From a virus (taxonomy: Duplodnaviria > Heunggongvirae > Uroviricota > Caudoviricetes), in the IMG/VR virus record IMGVR_UViG_3300037418_003161, positions 108,420 to 172,419 of that record: a stretch of 64,000 nucleotides of DNA. One strand, 5' to 3'. Each line of letters starts with the position of its first letter. Position 1 is the first letter of the stretch. A program made the position numbers and the translations under genes. Below the pieces are notes generated by a model. It did not search any database, had not been told where the DNA came from, and saw only the letters and a list, made by a program, of their open reading frames with translations. Below are positions 2,951 to 39,845 of this stretch, one piece after another.

Positions 2951-2980
2951 AAAAAAATCCTGAGCAGAGATGCTCAGGAT
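2951..2980 (-). terminator. intrinsic terminator after TerD-like gene
   Basis: ATCCTGAGCA-gaga-TGCTCAGGAT stem followed by U-tract on - strand. Confidence 0.8.
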
Positions 2981-3010
2981 GTACCAATGGATTGTCGTCC
3001 CTGCTAAGTG

Positions 3011-5161
3011 TTATTTCAAAAGCTCATTCAAATCTAATTGTTTGAACTTATTGTTTTCATTCAAGGGCTTGAACACGTAGGCTGTTACCTCTTTAGGTTC
3101 TTCCCCTTCCACAACTGGTTGCAATTCTGAAAAGTTAAGATTCTTATCATCATAACAAACCGGAATAACAACCTTGTTGTTTAGTTCTACCAATTCTTGG
3201 ATGGTCACATCTTGGAACAAGTCATGCACACTTGGGATGGTCGCCAAATATTCCACAATGCCCGGCATTAGCTCTACCAGTTTCTTTGCGTTTCTTACAG
3301 CCGAATTTACTTCAGCCTTCAGGTTGGCATCCATGTAAACAAGCTTTCTTTCTGCAATATCCACATAGGCGATGAACTTAGCGTAGTTATCATCCTTCAG
3401 AGGGAAGGCGATTTGGCTACGGCTTGGTTCAAACAGTTTACCCTTATTGGCATCTGTACCCCATTGTAGGGCTGCAAATACGTCCGTTGCATCCTTAAAT
3501 TTGATTTTGCTGTAACATAATACACTCCATACGGCGTAACGCACTCCTGCTCTTGCCAATTTATCCAAATACAGGTCAATTAATTGACATGCTTTACCAT
3601 CTGTGGTCTTGGAATTGGTTGGGTCGCCGGAGAACAGGGCCGCATCACCGAATTTAGGCTGATTCCATGCCACATCCCCAACACTTTCCCAATTCTGATT
3701 ATAGAAATTCCAACCATTGTCAAACCAGTTGTTACCAAAGGTTTTATTCTCCCAATAGCTTGCCGTTCTGATGAATTTAACATCATCGGGAATTGGAAAT
3801 ACAGTTCCACGACCATAGGCGGTTGAATCAGAAGCATTCAACTTAATATTGGTGGTTCTTTCATCTAAAAGAACAGGAACGTTCAATTTGGTCTGAACCT
3901 TTGTTTTGACTGTTATATTAATCATAGCAATTAAAGACAGCCTTATAGCTTCAGGAAACTTCTTACCGGAATTTTCAACCACCCTCACTTTTGTCCAGTT
4001 GCCCTTGGGTGGAAACAGTCTGTACTTACGGCTGTTGCACGTTTCAAGATATTTCTTCAGCTTCAGGAGTTGACCAACGGTCAATCTCTCTGCCACACTA
4101 CCAAATTCATTCAAAACCTCGCTACCGAAAAGAATTGACAATTGTTTAATTCTTCTCATAAATTCTCCGGGTCTCTTGGCCGCATATGTAACCGCCACGA
4201 CAGTATTGGATTTGATGAGCATATCCAATTTGCTGTTGAAGGAGTGTATATCATCCACATACAGCTTGCTTGCTGCCGTTACAGTTTTTGGGAATCTGTT
4301 TTTATAATCCCCGGCGTGTAGGTTGTGCATGAAACGCTTCCATACTTCCACATCTCTTGCCATATCTTCTTCAAGTGCCGTAGATTTCTCTAACAGACCC
4401 AAAAAGAAACGTCTTTCCTTCTTTTTAAAATTTCTGAACTTGGTTGGCTTGGTGGAGTTCAGGTCGCCATCGGACAGGACAATTGCCAAACGCAAAACGT
4501 CCGTAGCAGATTTCATGGTGATATCCGTTCCCTTTACCATCATATATTCCACCACCTTTACCAAATTCTCCTTGAAAGGAATGGCAGTAGCGGTAAGCTG
4601 AGGTTTCAGCGTATCAATCAACCAATACACCGTACCCAAGATGTGTCTGTTCCATCTTGTTGTTTGTTTTAACAAAGAATCCAAAATAGAAGACAAAGAG
4701 TTTTCGTTGGCAAGGTGAAGCACCTTCAGGGAATCTTTAGGGAAAATAGGCTCTCTGTCCTTAGCCTCAGTGGTGAACCATTCGTTGGGAAGGCCCACGT
4801 ACATCAGCACTTGGTTGAACCAATATTCAGCCTCGCTCATTTCCAATACTTCCTGTGGAAAGTTTTTGTAAACAACATATTCACCCATGTTGCGGTTGTC
4901 CCCGGTAATTTCCTTCAGGGCCGCATCAATGTTGTTCCACCACAATTGGATTGAGGTTCTGTCCAATGCGGTCAGGGTTTCTATAGAGGCTTTCGACAAA
5001 GTATAACCGTAATAAGCCAAATTGGTAAAAATTGTGGCAACAACGTCTTTGGAAGCCTGTCGCTTACCTGTTGCTTTGGGAATCTCAATGAGATTATTGC
5101 TAATAAGAATGACATCCTTAACTGTGCTTGTAGCAACATTGGTTTCCATAACGTGTTCCAT
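3011..5161 (-). CDS. large protein: helical N-terminal region plus C-terminal TerD-like domain
   Basis: 716 aa; FSGDPTN..G...QLIDLYL..L...GVRYAVWSVLCY resembles TerD; N-terminal SATDVLRL and RPGEFMRR motifs. Confidence 0.6.
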   Translation of the reverse strand: MEHVMETNVATSTVKDVILISNNLIEIPKATGKRQASKDVVATIFTNLAYYGYTLSKASIETLTALDRTSIQLWWNNIDAALKEITGDNRNMGEYVVYKNFPQEVLEMSEAEYWFNQVLMYVGLPNEWFTTEAKDREPIFPKDSLKVLHLANENSLSSILDSLLKQTTRWNRHILGTVYWLIDTLKPQLTATAIPFKENLVKVVEYMMVKGTDITMKSATDVLRLAIVLSDGDLNSTKPTKFRNFKKKERRFFLGLLEKSTALEEDMARDVEVWKRFMHNLHAGDYKNRFPKTVTAASKLYVDDIHSFNSKLDMLIKSNTVVAVTYAAKRPGEFMRRIKQLSILFGSEVLNEFGSVAERLTVGQLLKLKKYLETCNSRKYRLFPPKGNWTKVRVVENSGKKFPEAIRLSLIAMINITVKTKVQTKLNVPVLLDERTTNIKLNASDSTAYGRGTVFPIPDDVKFIRTASYWENKTFGNNWFDNGWNFYNQNWESVGDVAWNQPKFGDAALFSGDPTNSKTTDGKACQLIDLYLDKLARAGVRYAVWSVLCYSKIKFKDATDVFAALQWGTDANKGKLFEPSRSQIAFPLKDDNYAKFIAYVDIAERKLVYMDANLKAEVNSAVRNAKKLVELMPGIVEYLATIPSVHDLFQDVTIQELVELNNKVVIPVCYDDKNLNFSELQPVVEGEEPKEVTAYVFKPLNENNKFKQLDLNELLK

Positions 5162-5198
5162 AAATCGTGATTTTTAGCTTAGGTTATTCCAATAAAAA

Positions 5199-5269
5199 AG
5201 TGGGAAAGCAATTTGTCTGTTTTTAACTCCAATTGTTGATTTAGAAGGAAGACAAATTATAGCCCACTA
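5199..5269 (-). ncRNA. structured repeat unit D (last transcribed; 5' leader of TerD-like gene)
   Basis: UAGUGGG-CUAU-AAUUUGUCU-UCCUUCUAA..loop..-AGACAAAUU-GCUUU-CCCACU-UUUUU. Confidence 0.75.
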
Positions 5270-5280
5270 ATAATTTAAAA

Positions 5281-5311
5281 CAAAGATAATACAAGATTTT
5301 TACAATATCAA
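5281..5311 (-). promoter_or_regulatory. internal promoter P2 driving unit D and TerD-like gene
   Basis: TTG-N20-TATCTTTG. Confidence 0.75.
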
Positions 5312-5334
5312 GTACTTCTTAAATAATTTTTAAA

Positions 5335-5396
5335 AAGGGGAAGCAAGTTCACTACAGTTACAAATTGCTTTAGAAGGAAGCGAACTTATGGCCCTT
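5335..5396 (-). ncRNA. structured repeat unit C
   Basis: AAGGG-CCAU-AAGUUC-GCU-UCCUUCUAA..-GAACUU-GCUUC-CCCUU-UUU. Confidence 0.75.
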
Positions 5397-5403
5397 AAAA
5401 AAA

Positions 5404-5482
5404 TTGGGGGAAGCCGAAGGTCTGTTGCTTTTAATTTTCAAGTTTAAAATGATTAGAAGGAAGACCGAACGATAGCCCCAAA
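5404..5482 (-). ncRNA. structured repeat unit B
   Basis: UUGGGG-CUAU-CG-UUC-GGUCU-UCCUUCUAA..-AGACC-UU-CG-GCUUC-CCCCAA then U-tract. Confidence 0.75.
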
Positions 5483-5510
5483 TATGTTGAGAAAAGAACT
5501 TTCCAAAAAA

Positions 5511-5586
5511 TAGTGGGAAAGCCGAACCTCTAATTTTACGTTTTAAAAGTTGTTTTATTAGAAGGAAGACATTCGATGGCCCACTA
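5511..5586 (-). ncRNA. structured repeat unit A (first transcribed)
   Basis: UAGUGGG-CCAU-CGAAU-GUCU-UCCUUCUAA..-AGAG-GUUCG-GCUUU-CCCACUA-UUUUUU. Confidence 0.75.
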
Positions 5587-5591
5587 GAAAA

Positions 5592-5622
5592 CAAACATAA
5601 AAAAAGATTTTTAAATTGTCAA
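5592..5622 (-). promoter_or_regulatory. promoter P1 driving the repeat array
   Basis: TTG-N20-TATGTTTG ending 5 nt before unit A. Confidence 0.75.
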
Positions 5623-5643
5623 GTACTTTTCAAAAAATATTTT

Positions 5644-5946
5644 TCAAAGGTCAAATACATATTCGAATACATATAACCGATTAACACCAAATCCCTCCAA
5701 AAATTCGGTTTTCAGCCATTTGGCCGGGGGAAATCCAGATTGCATCTGTGGGTCACAATAAATCGTGTATAAATATTCATCATCTTCATCCACAATCTGA
5801 TAGAGTTGAAGGTCGGCTCTTGGAGTGGTGTAATAATCACCCTTCTTGGGTTTCCAGTAGCGTTGGCTGTAGTTGCCGGGCAACTGACCATAGAAATTGG
5901 TGGCAAGCACATGAAGTTTTTGGGTTTCCGTAAGTCCTGTATGCAT
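5644..5946 (-). CDS. hypothetical protein
   Basis: 100 aa ORF, ATG start, phage-like composition. Confidence 0.6.
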   Translation of the reverse strand: MHTGLTETQKLHVLATNFYGQLPGNYSQRYWKPKKGDYYTTPRADLQLYQIVDEDDEYLYTIYCDPQMQSGFPPAKWLKTEFLEGFGVNRLYVFEYVFDL

Positions 5947-5982
5947 GTAAAATAATAAACAAGCAAATGGTATTTGTAAAGT

Positions 5983-6516
5983 CTACAAAAGCCCAAGTGC
6001 CATCACCAGTTTGGCAATCACGATTTGGCTGCGGTTTCGAATGTCGTTTTCCCAAAACCGAAGCATTTGAATACCCCTTTCTTCACAAAGCTTATTCTTC
6101 TTATGGTCATTGACAATGGCTTTTCGCTGCAACTTATATTGGGGCTTTTTATATATCTCCGGGTTGCAATGATGGTAGTCCCCATCCACCTCAATGATGA
6201 TGTTTTGTTTGGGAATGTAAAAGTCAAAGAACTTTGTTCCAATTTGATACTGGCTTTGGTATTCAATACCCAAGGTGTCCAATATGCTCATGAAGTCTTT
6301 TTCCAGTTGGCTCATATTCTTTATCAGGTCTTCCCGAATTTGAGCCATGGACTTTCCTTTGACGGAAGCCTTTTTATTAACCGTCTTATTGGTTTTTATT
6401 CGGCTGACAGGTTTCTTTGTGGGGGATTTCCTGCCGTGAGCAATTTGCTTGTGTTTGCGGAGTCCTGCTAAGGTTTTATACGCCTTTTTGCATTGGGAGC
6501 ATCTATATGAATCCAT
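5983..6516 (-). CDS. C2H2 Zn-finger + Vsr/DUF559-type endonuclease
   Basis: YRCSQCKK..GLRKHKQIAH; FDFYIP..IIIEVDGDYHH..LRFWE; start moved to ATG 6516 just after ATATTTAT. Confidence 0.8.
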   Translation of the reverse strand: MDSYRCSQCKKAYKTLAGLRKHKQIAHGRKSPTKKPVSRIKTNKTVNKKASVKGKSMAQIREDLIKNMSQLEKDFMSILDTLGIEYQSQYQIGTKFFDFYIPKQNIIIEVDGDYHHCNPEIYKKPQYKLQRKAIVNDHKKNKLCEERGIQMLRFWENDIRNRSQIVIAKLVMALGLL

Positions 6517-6580
6517 ATAGATAAATATCTCACACCTACACAGTATTGGATTGGAATTACCTTGTTTTACCACCTGTTGA

Positions 6581-7150
6581 CTAAGCGAACAACCGTTTTC
6601 TCATATTACCAATGAAGATGTTGGCTATCGTGGAATAGTTATTGTTCAAATACGCTTCAAAAGATTGATAATAACTAAAACATTTATCACTTAAGTCCCT
6701 GTCTGTTTGAAATAATTGAAACCTTGTTTCGTTCAACAGCGTCATCATTAAACTGTGTGAAGTGCTTTTAATTTTATTGACAACCTCATTGGTGTTGTTT
6801 TCAAATTCTTCTTTGGAGGCCATTCGTTTAATGACCCACCCTTTGACTCCCGCTAATTTGTTTGCCGCAAGAGCATCAAAATCACGAATGAGGTTGTCAA
6901 AAAAAAGATTGAAGTTTTTCTTTTCATTTCGAATACCATCTATAAAAATCGGGAGCGATTTTTCGAACGCACCGTTAGCAACTCTTTTGATTTCATCCTG
7001 TGTAACTACAATTTTTGGAACGTCTTTGATTTCGGTAAGCAACTCATTAAGTGCTGTTTGAAAATTATTCCGCAACAGTTGTGTAAGTTGAGTGTCGGTT
7101 GTCGCCTCGGTAAGATACCGATGAAGGGTTTCTTTTATCAAGCTTCGCAT
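6581..7150 (-). CDS. hypothetical protein with capsid-targeting-like N-terminus
   Basis: MRSLIKETLHRYLTE; ATATTTAT at 7156-7163. Confidence 0.65.
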   Translation of the reverse strand: MRSLIKETLHRYLTEATTDTQLTQLLRNNFQTALNELLTEIKDVPKIVVTQDEIKRVANGAFEKSLPIFIDGIRNEKKNFNLFFDNLIRDFDALAANKLAGVKGWVIKRMASKEEFENNTNEVVNKIKSTSHSLMMTLLNETRFQLFQTDRDLSDKCFSYYQSFEAYLNNNYSTIANIFIGNMRKRLFA

Positions 7151-7177
7151 ATCAGATAAATATTCCCCTGAAAAAAG

Positions 7178-7200
7178 AAACCCCGGAATTTTCCGGGGTT
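7178..7200. terminator. CCCGGAAA-family palindrome / bidirectional terminator
   Basis: AAACCCCGGAATTTTCCGGGGTT. Confidence 0.75.
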
Positions 7201-7204
7201 GTTG

Positions 7205-8296
7205 TTATTGAACAGAAAGCGTATATTGTCCTATCATAAATCGCTGTGGCGTATAAGGGGAAGTCGTGGATGCCATAACCTTTAAGTAAATGGGTCGGCT
7301 ACCTGTTGATATGGTTGTTAACCCAATATTGGTGGTCAAGGGGTCATCTACTACCTTTACCAAGTTTTTTTGTTTGTCGTAAACCTCAACCCTCGCATCA
7401 ATATTACCAAAGGTTGTCACACTAAAAGAAAGATTGGGGGAGTTCACCACATACATATCCTCATCATTTTGGGCTTCTAAATACCCTTTGGTTGAGGAAG
7501 GTTGTGTAATTTTTTTACCGTCAGTAAAAGTGGCCGGACAATCATCAACTTTGTAGGGCAGTATTTGAGCAATTATAGCAAAACAGTTTTGGGTGGCATT
7601 ATATTTGGTTTTACCATCACTAAAAGTGGTAATGCTATTGGTATAACTCTGACCCATAATTGGCGACCAACTAAGCTCTCCGCTGCCGCTACCAGTATTG
7701 TATTCATTAAGAAAATTTCCGGCAGAATCCAATAAAGCTTCATGTTTTAAACCCAACGTATGACCCGTTTCGTGGGAACAGGCTTCACCAATTTTTTTTT
7801 CATTGTTACCCAAAAGACCACTGAACACAAAACAAGGTGTGTTGCCCCCCCATGTGAATGAACCATTATAAGATGTTCCTCCGGCAGCACCAAACCATTC
7901 ATAGGTCGGAGTAACAACAACTTCAATTCTTTTATAAGGATTGGCGGCAAGATAATCACTCTTATTACGTGTCACCCTTACTTGGAAAGGTGAATAGTCT
8001 TCTGTCACCCTATCCAAAATAGCTTGTTTTTGTGCTTCCGTCAAGGTGGGAGCGGCACATACAATATCACCGGAAATATTCCAAACAGTATTGGAAACGG
8101 TTTCTCCTTCCATATTCAACCAAATAACGGATTCCAATGTTAAAGTTGAGGTACTTCCACCATGCTGATTAAGATTTTTGCTCTGCGCAACGTTTTCAAT
8201 ACAATCAGGTGCAGAAAGTTTTGGGGAAGTCAGTTCCGTTTTTTTGCAACTAACCAATAAGACCAAGGCTAAAATTAAGACATTAAACGATTTCAT
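7205..8296 (-). CDS. lipoprotein zinc metalloprotease (metzincin-like)
   Basis: Lipobox LLVSC after hydrophobic signal; HETGHTLGLKH zinc motif; downstream Met-turn-like SPIMG. Confidence 0.8.
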   Translation of the reverse strand: MKSFNVLILALVLLVSCKKTELTSPKLSAPDCIENVAQSKNLNQHGGSTSTLTLESVIWLNMEGETVSNTVWNISGDIVCAAPTLTEAQKQAILDRVTEDYSPFQVRVTRNKSDYLAANPYKRIEVVVTPTYEWFGAAGGTSYNGSFTWGGNTPCFVFSGLLGNNEKKIGEACSHETGHTLGLKHEALLDSAGNFLNEYNTGSGSGELSWSPIMGQSYTNSITTFSDGKTKYNATQNCFAIIAQILPYKVDDCPATFTDGKKITQPSSTKGYLEAQNDEDMYVVNSPNLSFSVTTFGNIDARVEVYDKQKNLVKVVDDPLTTNIGLTTISTGSRPIYLKVMASTTSPYTPQRFMIGQYTLSVQ

Positions 8297-8345
8297 ATGT
8301 TTTATTTAAAACAAAGATAAAACAACATTTTAAAAGTTGCAAATA

Positions 8346-8372
8346 AAAACCCGGAAATATTTCCGGGTTTTT
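8346..8372. terminator. CCCGGAAA-family palindrome
   Basis: AAAAACCCGGAAATATTTCCGGGTTTTT. Confidence 0.75.
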
Positions 8373-8394
8373 GAGATGTATATATACAAAGCAA

Positions 8395-9411
8395 TCAGCG
8401 AACAACCACGTTAAATCGGCTAACCGCTTCCTCCCGGATTTGGTCTTGGATAACGTTGATTTCATCATGGGTAAGAGTGCGCTCGTTGGAACGATAAACA
8501 ATACGGTAACAGCGGGATTCCTTCTCACCCTTTTTGAAGGTATCGATGCAAGCCAATTCTTCCACAAGGTCTTTACCATATTCCCGCACCATTTCTGAAA
8601 AGTCGTTGGGGGTGAAACCTTCACCAATCCAAAAGGCAATGTCCCGGCTAATTGGGGGAAAGTTGGAATAGGGTTTAAAATCCACCACCTTGCCGGAAGC
8701 AAACTGCTTGTGGAAGCGTTCATCTTCTGTCCAGAACAGCCGGATATCAGGAATTTTGAACAATATCATTGCCAACCGCTCAAGACCAAGACCAAAGGCC
8801 CAACCCTTGGCATGAGAAAGGTTGTTATTTTTCATAATTTCTTTATGAACCACACCACAACCAAGCACCTCCAACCACTTACCCTCGAATTTCACCTCCA
8901 CTTCGTAGCTTGGTTCAGTGAAAGGGAAAAAATCGGAACTGAACCTCCATTCGCAATTGGGGAACAGGGTCTCAATCAATCCACCCAATACAGACTTTAG
9001 GTTGGCTTCGATATCCACATCCTCAGTGGTGATGAACACACCCTCCATTTGGTGGAATATGGGGTAGTGGGTGGCATCAATATCGTCTTTGCGGTACACA
9101 TCCCCGGTAACGAGGAATTTGCGATGTCCGGTACTCATAAGCTGATTTTGGTGGGCAGAGGTATGGGTGCGCAAAACCTTATCTTCTTGGACATAATAGG
9201 TATCGGACAGGCTTCGGGCAGGATGGTCTTTGGGAATTAACAGCAAATCAAAATTGTCCTTGGTGGAAACCACCGGGTCAAGGCTGTCAAATTTTTCAAA
9301 ACTATCACCAAAGTAGTTGTAGATGATTTCTTTGATGATACTCAAAGGATGGTTTGGTGTGTTGTGCAGATTGCGGCCAATACGAAGCCGAATCGATTGA
9401 GGAATGTTCAT
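8395..9411 (-). CDS. pheS: monomeric (mitochondrial/organelle-type) phenylalanyl-tRNA synthetase
   Basis: NFDLLLIPKDHPARSLSDTYY, LRTHTSAHQ, GDVYRKDDIDATHYPIFHQMEG, FPFTEPS, WLEVLGCG, GWAFGLGLERLAM, then RDIAFW...CYRIVYRSNERTLT FDX-ACB domain in one 338 aa chain. Confidence 0.93.
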   Translation of the reverse strand: MNIPQSIRLRIGRNLHNTPNHPLSIIKEIIYNYFGDSFEKFDSLDPVVSTKDNFDLLLIPKDHPARSLSDTYYVQEDKVLRTHTSAHQNQLMSTGHRKFLVTGDVYRKDDIDATHYPIFHQMEGVFITTEDVDIEANLKSVLGGLIETLFPNCEWRFSSDFFPFTEPSYEVEVKFEGKWLEVLGCGVVHKEIMKNNNLSHAKGWAFGLGLERLAMILFKIPDIRLFWTEDERFHKQFASGKVVDFKPYSNFPPISRDIAFWIGEGFTPNDFSEMVREYGKDLVEELACIDTFKKGEKESRCYRIVYRSNERTLTHDEINVIQDQIREEAVSRFNVVVR

Positions 9412-9501
9412 AATGTTTATTTTTTTAGGATTGGGTAAACGACTATGAGAATAATAAATAAAAAAAATTAAAAAGTCAAATAAGGGGGTTACAATACCCC
9501 T

Positions 9502-10218: not shown

Positions 10219-11829
10219 TCAAACTTCCAAAGACCACACATATTTTATCACACCACAATCATATATCCTATAAATTTTCCGTTCGAACATAATTTCTTTT
10301 TCAGTTTTCCCGTTGACATCAAATCCCTCTTTTTTCAACTGCGCCTTGGTGAAGTTTAAACGATGGAATCTTCGCCCATTTATAACATACCAATAATTGG
10401 GAAGTGAATGGCTTACCTTTTTAAAACCCAATCGTAGATAGGCATCCCCATTAAATATTCTTCTGTCGGCCATGGTGATAACTTTGGTTGGCTTATAGGT
10501 TTCCAAAAAATATTGGAATAATTTGTTTGCTGCACCATGCACAGTGGTAAATATTTTATTTGCAAATCTGACCATTTCATAAACATTTCTCTCATACTTC
10601 CCGATTCCCTTTCTTACCATACCAAACGACATTACAGATATCAATTCACCATTTGAAAATAATCCCAACCGGATACTTGCTTTGGCATATCCCTGAATGT
10701 GGTTGGCTTCAATAAACGCCTTATATGTTTTATTATCAAGTTCCTGAAGAACGGTTTTTCTACCAAACACCTTATTGGGTGTGAGACCAATTTTATTTAA
10801 AATGATGGATTCAACGATGGATGGTTTCAAAATAATTTCATCATCAAAAAAATGTATGAGATGCACATCGTTCTGTTCTGCCGCCAGCGTTTTATTTAAA
10901 TGAAAATCAGGCTCAACAAACAATTCATTGTGGTGGTATACACCATTGCATTCAATACCCAATTTCTGTTGGGGGAGATATGCATCGATTTCTTGTTTTC
11001 CTTTTAACAACCCCCTTTTGTTTTTTTCAAAGGCTACTTGGTGTCTTTCCAATATATCAAATATCATTCGTTGGGGGCTACTGTCATTTGCAACACCCAA
11101 TGGGAAGCAAATAATACAGGGGTTGTTGTTTACTGCATGTCTTTCTCTGAACACCTGTTTGTGAACTACTACTTCGTTGCCGCAGGAAGCACAGATAAAC
11201 GTACAAAAATGTTTGGTATCTTTTTCTTTTATAAAATTATACACATCAAATCCTTCTCTACTATAAAACACTTCCTTCATTTGGTCTTTAAACCTATCGG
11301 ATTGTGCATATTGTTCCACACCATATCTTTCTTTGTTGGTCTTTTTTCTTTTATCAAGGTTATTATAAGTGGGGTTGCCATATTTTTTCCGTTTTGTCTG
11401 CATCATCTTTTTAGGGTTATTGAAGGTCTCCGACCCGTACCGTTCCTTTTTGGTTGTTTTGGTCTTGTCTTCCCATAACTTATGTTGAGAGAAGAAATCA
11501 ACCCCGTATTTTTCCTGATTTGTTTTTTTTACACGCTTGGTGTTTTCTTCTATCTTACCATTGAAACAGGACTGTGAGCAAAACTCATTAAACCCTTTTT
11601 GGAGTGTTCCTCGAAAATTCACAGACTTTCCACAAATACACCTTTTTTGTGTTTTAATGTCATTTATGAAATACCACACCTTTTCTTTGAAAGAAAGACC
11701 CTCCATTTTATGTTGGAGCGCAAATGTTTGAATTGCAGCATAAACTTCAGGAAAATTCTTATGAAGCAAACGTTCATTGGTTTTCCATCCGCTTTTATTA
11801 TCTGAAATAAAAAATTCTTTATAGTCCAT
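10219..11829 (-). CDS. free-standing homing-endonuclease-like protein (Zn finger + KYG repeats + Vsr-like nuclease + GNAT-like C-terminus), copy 1
   Basis: CICG..FCSQSC; KTNQEKYGV repeats; EIDAYLP..LGIECNGVYHH..LIHFFDDE; HIQG..MVRFA..GAANKLF..TMADRR. Confidence 0.8.
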   Translation of the reverse strand: MDYKEFFISDNKSGWKTNERLLHKNFPEVYAAIQTFALQHKMEGLSFKEKVWYFINDIKTQKRCICGKSVNFRGTLQKGFNEFCSQSCFNGKIEENTKRVKKTNQEKYGVDFFSQHKLWEDKTKTTKKERYGSETFNNPKKMMQTKRKKYGNPTYNNLDKRKKTNKERYGVEQYAQSDRFKDQMKEVFYSREGFDVYNFIKEKDTKHFCTFICASCGNEVVVHKQVFRERHAVNNNPCIICFPLGVANDSSPQRMIFDILERHQVAFEKNKRGLLKGKQEIDAYLPQQKLGIECNGVYHHNELFVEPDFHLNKTLAAEQNDVHLIHFFDDEIILKPSIVESIILNKIGLTPNKVFGRKTVLQELDNKTYKAFIEANHIQGYAKASIRLGLFSNGELISVMSFGMVRKGIGKYERNVYEMVRFANKIFTTVHGAANKLFQYFLETYKPTKVITMADRRIFNGDAYLRLGFKKVSHSLPNYWYVINGRRFHRLNFTKAQLKKEGFDVNGKTEKEIMFERKIYRIYDCGVIKYVWSLEV

Positions 11830-39237: not shown

Positions 39238-39791
39238 TTGGGTGTGACATTGAAGTGTATCAACAATTGGTGTAATTCATAAGAAGGAATCTTAACCCCC
39301 TTGGCCTCAAGCATGGCTTTGACACTATTGATTTCACTTTGAAAGGGTTTGTCCACCGAACGGGAGACGGTTGGTGCGGTAAAGGTAATGGTACGAAGAG
39401 AGGGTTCTGTTTGGTCTCTCCATGTACACAACAGGTCAACGGAGTATTGTTTGATATAAGAAGTGTGGGTATACGTATCGTAAGCCACCACCTCACCCAA
39501 TTGTTTGAAATTCACAAGGTCAGCATGAATGTAGAGGTTGTATTTGGTTTCACGCTCATATCTTTCCTGTGGGGCTTTCACGTAGAATGCCTGTTTGGTC
39601 TGAAGGTCAACCTTCAATTTCTTTTGAATGGGAAAATCGAAAATGACCTTGGGGGTTTCGTTGTTGGAATAGAACCACCTCGTCTCACCCAATACATTTC
39701 CGTCTTTAAAAAAGAGAATCCTGTTAATTTCTTTATTCCCAAAATAGAAAGGGTTATAACAGGCAATTGATTTTTCTATTACTGTTTCCAT
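39234..39791 (-). CDS. hypothetical protein
   Basis: Start moved to ATG 39791, downstream of promoter 39814. Confidence 0.6.
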   Translation of the reverse strand: METVIEKSIACYNPFYFGNKEINRILFFKDGNVLGETRWFYSNNETPKVIFDFPIQKKLKVDLQTKQAFYVKAPQERYERETKYNLYIHADLVNFKQLGEVVAYDTYTHTSYIKQYSVDLLCTWRDQTEPSLRTITFTAPTVSRSVDKPFQSEINSVKAMLEAKGVKIPSYELHQLLIHFNVTPK

Positions 39792-39845
39792 GTTGTTTGT
39801 TTTTGTTTCAAAACAAAGATAAAACAACTTTTTATTCCGGCCAAA

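Follow-up and report, generated by a model that had tools for sequence, protein, structure and literature searches.

We analysed a stretch of 64,000 nucleotides (nt) of virus DNA (Caudoviricetes), referred to below as the window, which is part of the 236,419-bp IMG/VR virus record IMGVR_UViG_3300037418_003161 (C1:108420-172419 in the coordinates of that record; 73% complete by CheckV) and which was found in four soil and rhizosphere metagenome datasets. On the - strand of the window, from position 5586 to position 5199, four RNA units of one plan lie directly upstream of a gene for a protein of 716 amino acids (aa), and 37 nt separate the end of unit 4 from the ATG of this gene. Duplicated promoter-like sites before unit 1 and before unit 4 divide the array 3+1 (Table 1).

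Table 1. Features of the RNA-protein module in the window (R1, covariance model of the RNA family; promoter and terminator calls are consensus matches only)
Feature	Position	Strand	Description
RNA unit 1	5512-5585	-	74 nt; R1 44.5 bits, E 3.6e-11; own fold -17.8 kcal/mol, z -2.7
RNA unit 2	5404-5481	-	78 nt; R1 34.8 bits, E 3.7e-8; z -1.7 (weakest unit)
RNA unit 3	5334-5397	-	64 nt; R1 51.2 bits, E 2.8e-13; fold z -2.6
RNA unit 4	5199-5268	-	70 nt; R1 56.2 bits, E 7.8e-15; fold z -3.1
Putative promoter A	5594-5622	-	TTGACA-17-TATGTT; second box also reads TAtgTTTG; consensus scan 10/12
Putative promoter B	5283-5311	-	TTGATA-17-TATCTT; reads TAtcTTTG; consensus scan 9/12
Partner protein gene	3011-5161	-	716 aa: helical N-terminal part (~1-445), TerD fold (~456-635), small alpha/beta C-terminal part
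Terminator-like hairpin	2957-2980	-	10 bp, then TTTTTTATTT; ends the module 3' of the protein gene; consensus scan

The four units share a terminal stem (P1) with inner pairs G-C and G-C, an asymmetric internal loop with CYAU on its 5' side and GCUUY on its 3' side, a 9-bp stem (P2) that is different in each unit and always ends in C-G and U-A, and an apical loop in which UCCUUCUAA comes first and the other 16-29 bases are variable and rich in A/U. Behind each unit there is a U-tract (5-7 U). In unit 1, P1 is AGUGGG/CCCACU, the internal loop is CCAU/GCUUU, P2 (CGAAU..UCU/AGA..GUUCG) has two mismatches, and the apical loop consists of UCCUUCUAA and 26 A/U-rich nt, with AUUUUUU behind the unit. 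Unit 2 combines P1 UUGGGG/CCCCAA and loop CUAU/GCUUC with a P2 (GGUCU/AGACC plus CG/CG) that is broken by a UU/UU mismatch and a bulge; a small A/U hairpin lies within its apical loop, and UUUUUUU follows. In unit 3 (P1 AAGGG/CCCUU; loop CCAU/GCUUC; then UUUUU) P2 is AAGUUCGCU/AGUGAACUU, and in unit 4 (P1 AGUGGG/CCCACU; loop CUAU/GCUUU; then UUUUUU) it is a perfect 9-bp AAUUUGUCU/AGACAAAUU. When folded alone, each unit adopted the common shape (minimum free energy -15.9 to -17.8 kcal/mol; z -1.7 to -3.1). Over 52 nt, the units are 63-71% identical to one another, owing to what we term the handle (P1 ending in GG/CC, the CYAU/GCUUY loop, a P2 with C-G and U-A as its closing pairs, and single-stranded UCCUUCU), which would be a candidate protein-binding site. 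UCCUUCUAA occurs six times in the window as compared to 0.46 expected copies, with four of the six inside the array, and the full pattern GGGCYAT..TCCTTCTAA..GCTTYCCC has four occurrences in the 236-kb record and none in the reversed control.

A first-pass annotation made from the letters of this DNA had placed four hairpin units at these positions on the - strand, had given their lengths as 62-79 nt and had listed inner stems that differ between units and stay paired. Direct reading of the window agrees with the positions and the strand, and every listed inner stem of units 1 to 4 is present both in the letters and in the unit's own fold; the lengths are similar to those given, although our refined limits put them at 64-78 nt. 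The annotation also held that the array is not CRISPR. We likewise rejected a CRISPR array, as the array lacks identical repeats with spacers between them: the handle alone is conserved, the stems differ per unit and the spacing is uneven (105, 83 and 129 nt).

A covariance-model search of other genomes had been proposed in the same annotation. Our model, R1, was built from 15 equal-length units from other genomes, with none from the window, and in the window as well as in the whole 236-kb record it matched exactly the four units (34.8-56.2 bits). With DNA pattern scans, RNAs of this build were found on further large contigs of phages and also, which was unexpected, in bacteria from several phyla. 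The first broad pattern scan returned mostly chance matches, as did, expectedly, the scan of genome contigs (approx. 17 specified bases, 596 Gb), and true members were sorted from chance matches by demanding both stems. Over bacteria and phages, the more than 340 R1 matches represent 225 distinct units with the consensus nnnnGGCuAU-(P2)-CUUCCUUCUa-(loop)-AG-(P2')-nnUUuCC-nnnn.

The covariation claimed for the inner stems was confirmed on these distinct units. Among the 98 units from bacterial loci, 94.7% of paired cells were able to pair as compared to 62.4% after shuffling and 42-52% with slid partners, and 12 of 15 pairs showed changes on both sides; among the 127 units from phage loci, the corresponding values were 92.9%, 55.5% and 37-50%, with changes on both sides in 14 of 15 pairs. 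The covariation score was 0.81 vs. 0.18 for the bacterial and 0.91 vs. 0.18 for the phage units. Because the two alignments were fitted to R1, they are biased somewhat toward structure, but the slid controls on the same alignments were far lower. UUCCUUCU was conserved to at least 90% in both the bacterial and the phage alignment and is predicted to be unpaired. The U-tract, which the first-pass annotation had made part of the shared plan, does follow all four units in the window, but it follows only 29 of the 98 bacterial and 30 of the 127 phage units and is not a trait of the family. Overall, the alignments show a predicted RNA fold under purifying selection, with stems and apical loops that vary freely, and indicate that each of the four units encodes a small structured RNA belonging to a single, widely distributed family.

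The annotation had recognised no named family, and in agreement with this Rfam 15 yielded no match that reached the gathering score, either for the window or for 15 related loci. The best weak Rfam match in the window was to Vault (18 bits, E 0.58), an identity that we rejected since the match reflects only the stem, the loop and the U-tail. A signal recognition particle (SRP) RNA on the opposite strand, for which GAAGGAAGC in the reverse complement would have spoken, was also rejected because there was no SRP match on either strand, while the promoters and the U-tracts fit the - strand.

The association between the RNA and the protein gene was assessed in both directions. For the protein-to-RNA direction, 80 bacterial and 80 phage loci were picked by protein similarity alone, and a bacterial locus was counted if it held at least one R1 match within 1.5 kb of the protein gene. 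Such matches were found at 75 of the 80 bacterial loci, and at least two of the other five loci are cut by a contig end; the bacterial hosts include members of Myxococcota, Cyanobacteria, Actinomycetota, Bacillota, Planctomycetota, Bacteroidota, Saccharimonadia, Acidobacteriota and Chloroflexota. Among the phage loci, 78 of 80 held R1 matches, 242 in total (approx. 3 per locus), all of them on the strand of the protein gene. In the RNA-to-protein direction, where loci were chosen by the RNA DNA pattern alone, the protein gene was adjacent in 24 of 25 cases and the twenty-fifth was cut at the end of the locus. The genes that adjoin the RNA in other loci encode 680-755 aa, and those of bacteria are homologous to the 716-aa protein of the window (BLASTP E 8e-66 for Flavobacteriaceae and 6e-62 for Niallia). 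These counts show that, in hosts only very distantly related, the RNA is a near-obligate same-strand neighbour of a single protein family, and they give the earlier suggestion that the RNAs act as protein ligands a concrete candidate, i.e., the adjacent 716-aa protein, which may be described as a TerD fusion (see below).

The placement of the units relative to the gene differed among loci. On the same strand, 60 bacterial R1 matches lay upstream and 34 downstream of the protein gene (median gap 63 nt and 11.5 nt, respectively), with three on the opposite strand; upstream units were present in 42 bacterial loci and downstream units in 30. A cis-regulatory leader would always lie in the 5' untranslated region, whereas 34 of 100 bacterial matches and many phage matches are downstream; with placement on both sides of the gene the units are therefore unlike a pure 5' leader. 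A single unit was present in 57 of the 75 bacterial loci, and arrays reached up to six units. The largest bacterial array, six units within 650 nt upstream of the protein gene, lies on a contig of a bacterial metagenome-assembled genome (MAG; L318:337-984), and multi-unit arrays are therefore not confined to phages. Four neighbourhoods (a Gloeocapsa genome, a Flavobacteriaceae MAG, Niallia taxi and a 462-kb phage) held no other conserved neighbour gene, so the RNA and the protein appear to make up a self-contained two-part module. An RtcB gene adjoined the module in none of these four. In one huge-phage locus a gene for a T4-type RNA ligase lies approx. 7 kb from the module. A megablast search of GenBank phages with positions 3000-9500 of the window gave no match; viral contigs searched with the single protein yielded no related loci, whereas the alignment-based scan succeeded.

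For the partner protein and 10 relatives Pfam offered no family, PF02342 (TerD) being matched by relatives below threshold only (E 0.001-0.008), and the 716-aa protein falls into phrog_33734 (E 2e-137), a family of unknown function. Among 5.8 billion proteins, 752 relatives were scored at E <= 1e-5, and the names given were all "hypothetical protein". The sole curated model that recognises the family is NCBIfam NF041916 (MXAN_6230/SCO0854 family RING domain-containing protein), which matched the 716-aa protein with 204 bits (E 4e-60) and the bacterial neighbours of the RNA with E values down to 5.5e-153, and which shares the predicted fold (Atlas TM 0.79 by query). On the other hand, all scores stay below the 600-bit cut-off of that model and the N-terminal Prok-RING_4 part is missing here.

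The AlphaFold2 model of the 716-aa protein (pLDDT 86, pTM 0.83) shows the TerD beta-sandwich fold in residues ~456-635 (2qz7_B, Z 14.0, root-mean-square deviation (rmsd) 2.5, 156 of 169 residues aligned; 2kxt, Z 13.0), and a Foldseek search matched 3ibz (E 1.1e-5, TM by target 0.69). Within it an SGD..T stretch and aspartates are invariant (S511, G512 and D513; D481 and D529), which resemble the Ca2+-binding motifs of TerD. This fold is shared with the TerD proteins of tellurite resistance and Ter stress (PDB 2qz7, 3ibz, 2kxt). Stand-alone TerD proteins have approx. 190 aa and are encoded in ter operons, and we know of no RNA partner for them. Here, unlike in those proteins, the domain stands behind a helical part of 445 aa, and in the four neighbourhoods the gene travels with an RNA and not, as in ter operons, with terC, terB or telA.

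Arginines are numerous among the invariant residues of the helical part (R224, R250 and R336; R136 and R330 are nearly invariant). Modelled alone, this part reached a pLDDT of 85, and Foldseek found no match for it in the PDB at E <= 0.001; a sequence search of the PDB with the protein profile likewise gave nothing meaningful. Membership of the partner protein in TROVE (PF05731) is not supported by these comparisons, and no neighbour in AlphaFold DB or the Atlas is named TROVE. The AlphaFold DB neighbours bear the names TerD family, ZorC EH-domain, DUF4132 or RING-type. They include eukaryotic RING-type and UBC-core entries as well as bacterial ZorC EH-domain and DUF4132 entries, the fold being common to parts of the protein, and on the predicted models the partner family may be tied to ubiquitin-like or Zorya-type modules in other lineages.

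The two promoter-like sites lie inside a duplicated block of 55 nt (5588-5642 and 5277-5331, 82% identical). Promoter A would start a transcript a few bases ahead of unit 1, and promoter B, a copy of A, would drive unit 4 and probably the protein gene too. None of the four units was recognised as a terminator in the scan for such hairpins. The TATCTTTGTTTT box of promoters A and B also stands before four other phage genes. A 23-nt motif, AAAACAAAGATAAAACAACTTTT, is present in four copies (window 39779-39832, i.e., genome 148238, and genome 32160, 80414 and 179952), each of which is the reverse complement of the TATCTTTGTTTT box and lies a few tens of bases 5' of an ATG; AAAACAAAGATAAAACAACTTTT and TATCTTTGTTTT thus look like one promoter class of this phage, of the Bacteroidota-like form TAnnTTTG. 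The loop of unit 1 is formed in part by 14 nt of the AAAACAAAGATAAAACAACTTTT motif (0.008 expected by chance). When the four units were compared with the phage genome by blastn-short in search of antisense targets, short matches at chance level were found, with the exception of this promoter-like 14-mer.

The Ro60/Y RNA particle, with the Y RNAs YrlA/YrlB in bacteria and phages, is the best-known small-RNA/protein quality-control particle of bacteria, phages and animals, and its role in bacteria is only partly understood. The module resembles it in several respects: an RNA gene stands within a few hundred bases, on the same strand, of a gene for a large helical protein (RNA-binding in Ro60 (Rsr), by inference here), several RNAs per locus are frequent, and the pair is found in bacteria and phages alike. 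The RNAs also agree in build, with a closed terminal stem, a handle formed by a conserved internal loop, and an apical module that varies and in a subset is a permuted tRNA mimic; this is a likeness of working and not of membership. Unlike Ro60 (TROVE plus vWA), the partner protein has neither a TROVE nor a vWA domain by Pfam (for TROVE also by profile-profile comparison) and carries a TerD fold instead. YrlA RNAs are defined by an Rsr site, GNCGAAN0-1G, near the 5' end and by an adjoining TROVE gene (Chen et al. 2014, PMC4201824). At the position of the Rsr site the window units read GGGCYAU and the family consensus reads GGCuAU, so that the handle is GG-CYAU...UCCUUCU...GCUUY-CC and not GNCGAAN0-1G; in place of a TROVE gene within approx. 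4 kb on the same strand the gene beside the RNA is that of the TerD fusion. Neither a TROVE nor an RtcB gene was found in the 236-kb phage record (73% complete), and in two bacterial genomes that have both TROVE and TerD-fusion genes these genes lie apart, in one case by approx. 370 kb on the same contig. YrlA itself gave no match at gathering score in the window, and none at E <= 10 in positions 4900-5900.

The first-pass annotation had limited the likeness to Y RNAs to architecture, which proved too narrow for the family as a whole. In some relatives the apical insert follows the order T-arm, closed acceptor, D-arm (L134:620-753, L299:108-240 and L310:3548-3681), and units with a tRNA-like insert, at these three loci and at the phage loci L413, L429, L422 and L419, matched Rfam YrlA (RF02553) with 30-44 bits (E 3e-7 to 6e-3), i.e., below the gathering cut-off of 69 bits. 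Because the Rsr site and the adjoining TROVE gene both fail here, we take the likeness to YrlA, by analogy, to be one of design only, in which a protein handle is joined to an interchangeable module, in some cases a tRNA mimic. Moreover, tRNA or transfer-messenger RNA (tmRNA) genes lay within 2 kb on the same strand at 31 of 60 phage loci as compared to 1 of 60 bacterial loci.

Individual loci illustrate the surroundings. At L134 (IMGVR_UViG_3300022697_000186, a 236-kb phage; 418-503, 620-825 and 6028-6373) one tRNA-like unit is accompanied by plain units on both sides of the gene, the module stands beside a tRNA-Sec-like gene (47.5 bits), and a tmRNA gene (156 bits) lies approx. 3 kb past the protein gene. 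The tRNA gene nearest to the module in our record has the anticodon CUA (amber suppressor type; tRNA-Pyl by ARAGORN) and lies at C1:108270-108357 on the - strand, 63 nt before window position 1 and thus approx. 3 kb beyond the protein gene on the strand of the module; tRNA(CUA) genes also adjoin the module at L413:424-498 and L429:5235-5311. These tRNA(CUA) genes may point to TAG recoding in these phages.

The explanation that we favour, and consider probable, is that the units are Y-RNA-like modular ligands of the adjacent TerD-fusion protein and form with it a TROVE-independent particle; the binding itself, the part of the protein that binds, the processing of the RNAs and their role are all inferred. 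In this explanation the protein would contact the handle, for which its arginine-rich helical part is the natural candidate, and the rest of the apical loop would serve as a specificity module (here short loops rich in A/U, in other loci small hairpins, and in some relatives a permuted domain resembling tRNA). Promoter A would drive units 1 to 3, each of which would stop at its own U-tract or be cut out of a read-through transcript, and promoter B would drive unit 4 and, by reading through the U-tract, the protein mRNA, an arrangement that would also allow feedback of the protein on its own synthesis. The outcome would be a ribonucleoprotein (RNP) on the Ro60/Y RNA plan with another protein and another handle, present in four variants during infection. 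Like the Ro60/Y RNA particles, such a particle may act on tRNAs or on further structured RNAs, and its role might be, as a guess, surveillance or protection of these RNAs or that of a decoy for host nucleases.

Several observations weigh against this explanation. None of the four units in the window has a tRNA-like module, and the module lies outside any tRNA cluster, the 18 tRNA genes of the phage being elsewhere. No RNA datasets are listed with the window DNA, and for the relative in Priestia megaterium (L346) contigs of 5-8 kb from RNA libraries cover the whole stretch and are uninformative for a small RNA. In one RNA run of L346 a contig junction (1282-1305) falls inside the unit; we place no interpretation on it. 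A HEAT-repeat ring like that of Ro60 is possible for the helical part, but its structural matches to Ro60 are weak: in a Foldseek-independent search its model aligned with Ro60 of Thermus phage phiLo (9l5y_B; Z 7.0, rmsd 6.8, 241 residues) and of Xenopus (1yvp_A; Z 5.9, rmsd 8.4, 249 residues), which gave the longest alignments among those listed, with Z values that are ordinary for helical repeats, and when the N-terminal alignment was compared by hhalign with six TROVE proteins from the searched genomes, the probability was 0.14% (E 0.42).

Tight same-strand linkage, moreover, would be expected just as well of a cis-acting autoregulatory site, which also tells against free RNA ligands. The units could then be operators or attenuators on the protein's own mRNA, bound by the protein, and in keeping with this they lie on the strand of the gene and within tens of bases of it, unit 4, placed like an attenuator, has promoter B before it, the ATG behind it and a U-tract at its end, and most bacterial loci (57 of 75) have one unit. 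We nevertheless consider this alternative unlikely, since the unit lies only 3' of the stop codon in 30 of the 75 bacterial loci, arrays run to six units with approx. three per locus in phages, units 1 to 3 have a promoter and U-tracts of their own with a second promoter between them and the gene, and some units contain a tRNA-like domain while those of phages stand among tRNA genes. Rather less probable still is that the units are base-pairing small RNAs (sRNAs) in which the invariant single-stranded UUCCUUCU is the seed for a purine-rich target (AGAAGGAA-like, e.g., Shine-Dalgarno-like sites or another conserved RNA), with the protein as a chaperone or unrelated. Regulatory sRNAs typically do combine conserved loop seeds with covarying stems, and the seed is both strongly conserved and predicted to be unpaired. 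However, such constancy of a seed over approx. ten phyla and the phages that infect them would demand a universal target, of which none was identified; near-perfect coupling to one protein family is untypical of ordinary sRNAs, and the internal loop, which has no part in pairing, is equally conserved.

The order seen in the window, a tandem array, a terminator-like U-tract and a protein gene, with RNA that presumably binds the protein, is that of type III toxin-antitoxin systems (ToxIN-like), in which an RNA antitoxin array neutralises the adjacent protein. These systems have near-identical direct repeats that the toxin cuts into units, whereas the units compared here share 63-71% identity, differ outside the handle, which alone is conserved, and at most bacterial loci are single and often downstream of the gene; the protein is large (approx. 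700 aa) and has a TerD fold but neither a known RNase fold nor a recognisable nuclease (PADLOC models not searched), all of which makes such a pair very improbable. We give the least credence of all, close to none, to the view that the units are plain intrinsic terminators, or local repeats in decay, with no independent function. All four units do end in a U-tract, and the promoter and terminator scans rest on consensus matches; on the other hand, the handle recurs with compensatory changes throughout the family (more than 340 matches, 225 distinct units), a U-tract follows only about a quarter of the units, and the long loops and the internal loop are unlike those of terminators, the scan having called none of the four.

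Elsewhere in the window, a gene at 8395-9411 (- strand) encodes a single-chain phenylalanyl-tRNA synthetase of 338 aa with the organelle-type architecture (tRNA-synt_2d, E 2e-60, plus FDX-ACB, E 5.5e-20), in a phage whose 18 tRNA genes include one for tRNA-Phe. Two genes for homing/HNH-type endonucleases (DUF559 plus C2H2 zinc finger; phrog_559/3339) are located at 5983-6573 and 10219-11829, both on the - strand. One of them is directly upstream of the RNA array, and the intervening open reading frame of 100 aa (5644-5946) had no match.

The RNA-protein pair is absent from Rfam 15, Pfam and the PHROGs annotation. In literature on YrlA, TerD, Ro60, TROVE and RNA repair we found no description of the RNA or of the pairing, although a prior mention in relevant reviews is possible, and we found no paper on SCO0854 or MXAN_6230. 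A survey of jumbo phages mentions ROT/TROVE and stand-alone TerD genes and not the module of RNA and TerD fusion (PMC7824862). If the helical part proves unrelated to TROVE, the module is of a new kind; otherwise it is a variant of the Ro/Y-type RNP.

A wider proposal, which we regard as plausible while putting it at somewhat short of an even chance, is that this is a second, TROVE-independent Ro/Y-type RNP in which a helical-plus-TerD protein would be loaded with interchangeable RNAs by way of a universal GGCYAU/UCCUUCU/GCUUYCC handle, an RNP spread over approx. ten phyla and many large phages, which would act on tRNAs or other structured RNAs in surveillance, repair or protection and whose multi-RNA phage versions, often placed in tRNA clusters, would keep translation running against host defences that target RNA. 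If the explanation that we favour is true, the Ro/Y plan would have evolved or diversified more than once, and a large family of "hypothetical" TerD-fusion proteins from soil, aquatic and gut bacteria, including cultivable Bacillaceae, would gain a partner and a testable RNA-binding activity. A conserved RNA family would also be added to the catalogues, the recurrent unannotated gap beside the tRNA clusters of jumbo phages would be explained, and for these phages the module would represent a possible counter-measure to defence systems that target tRNA.

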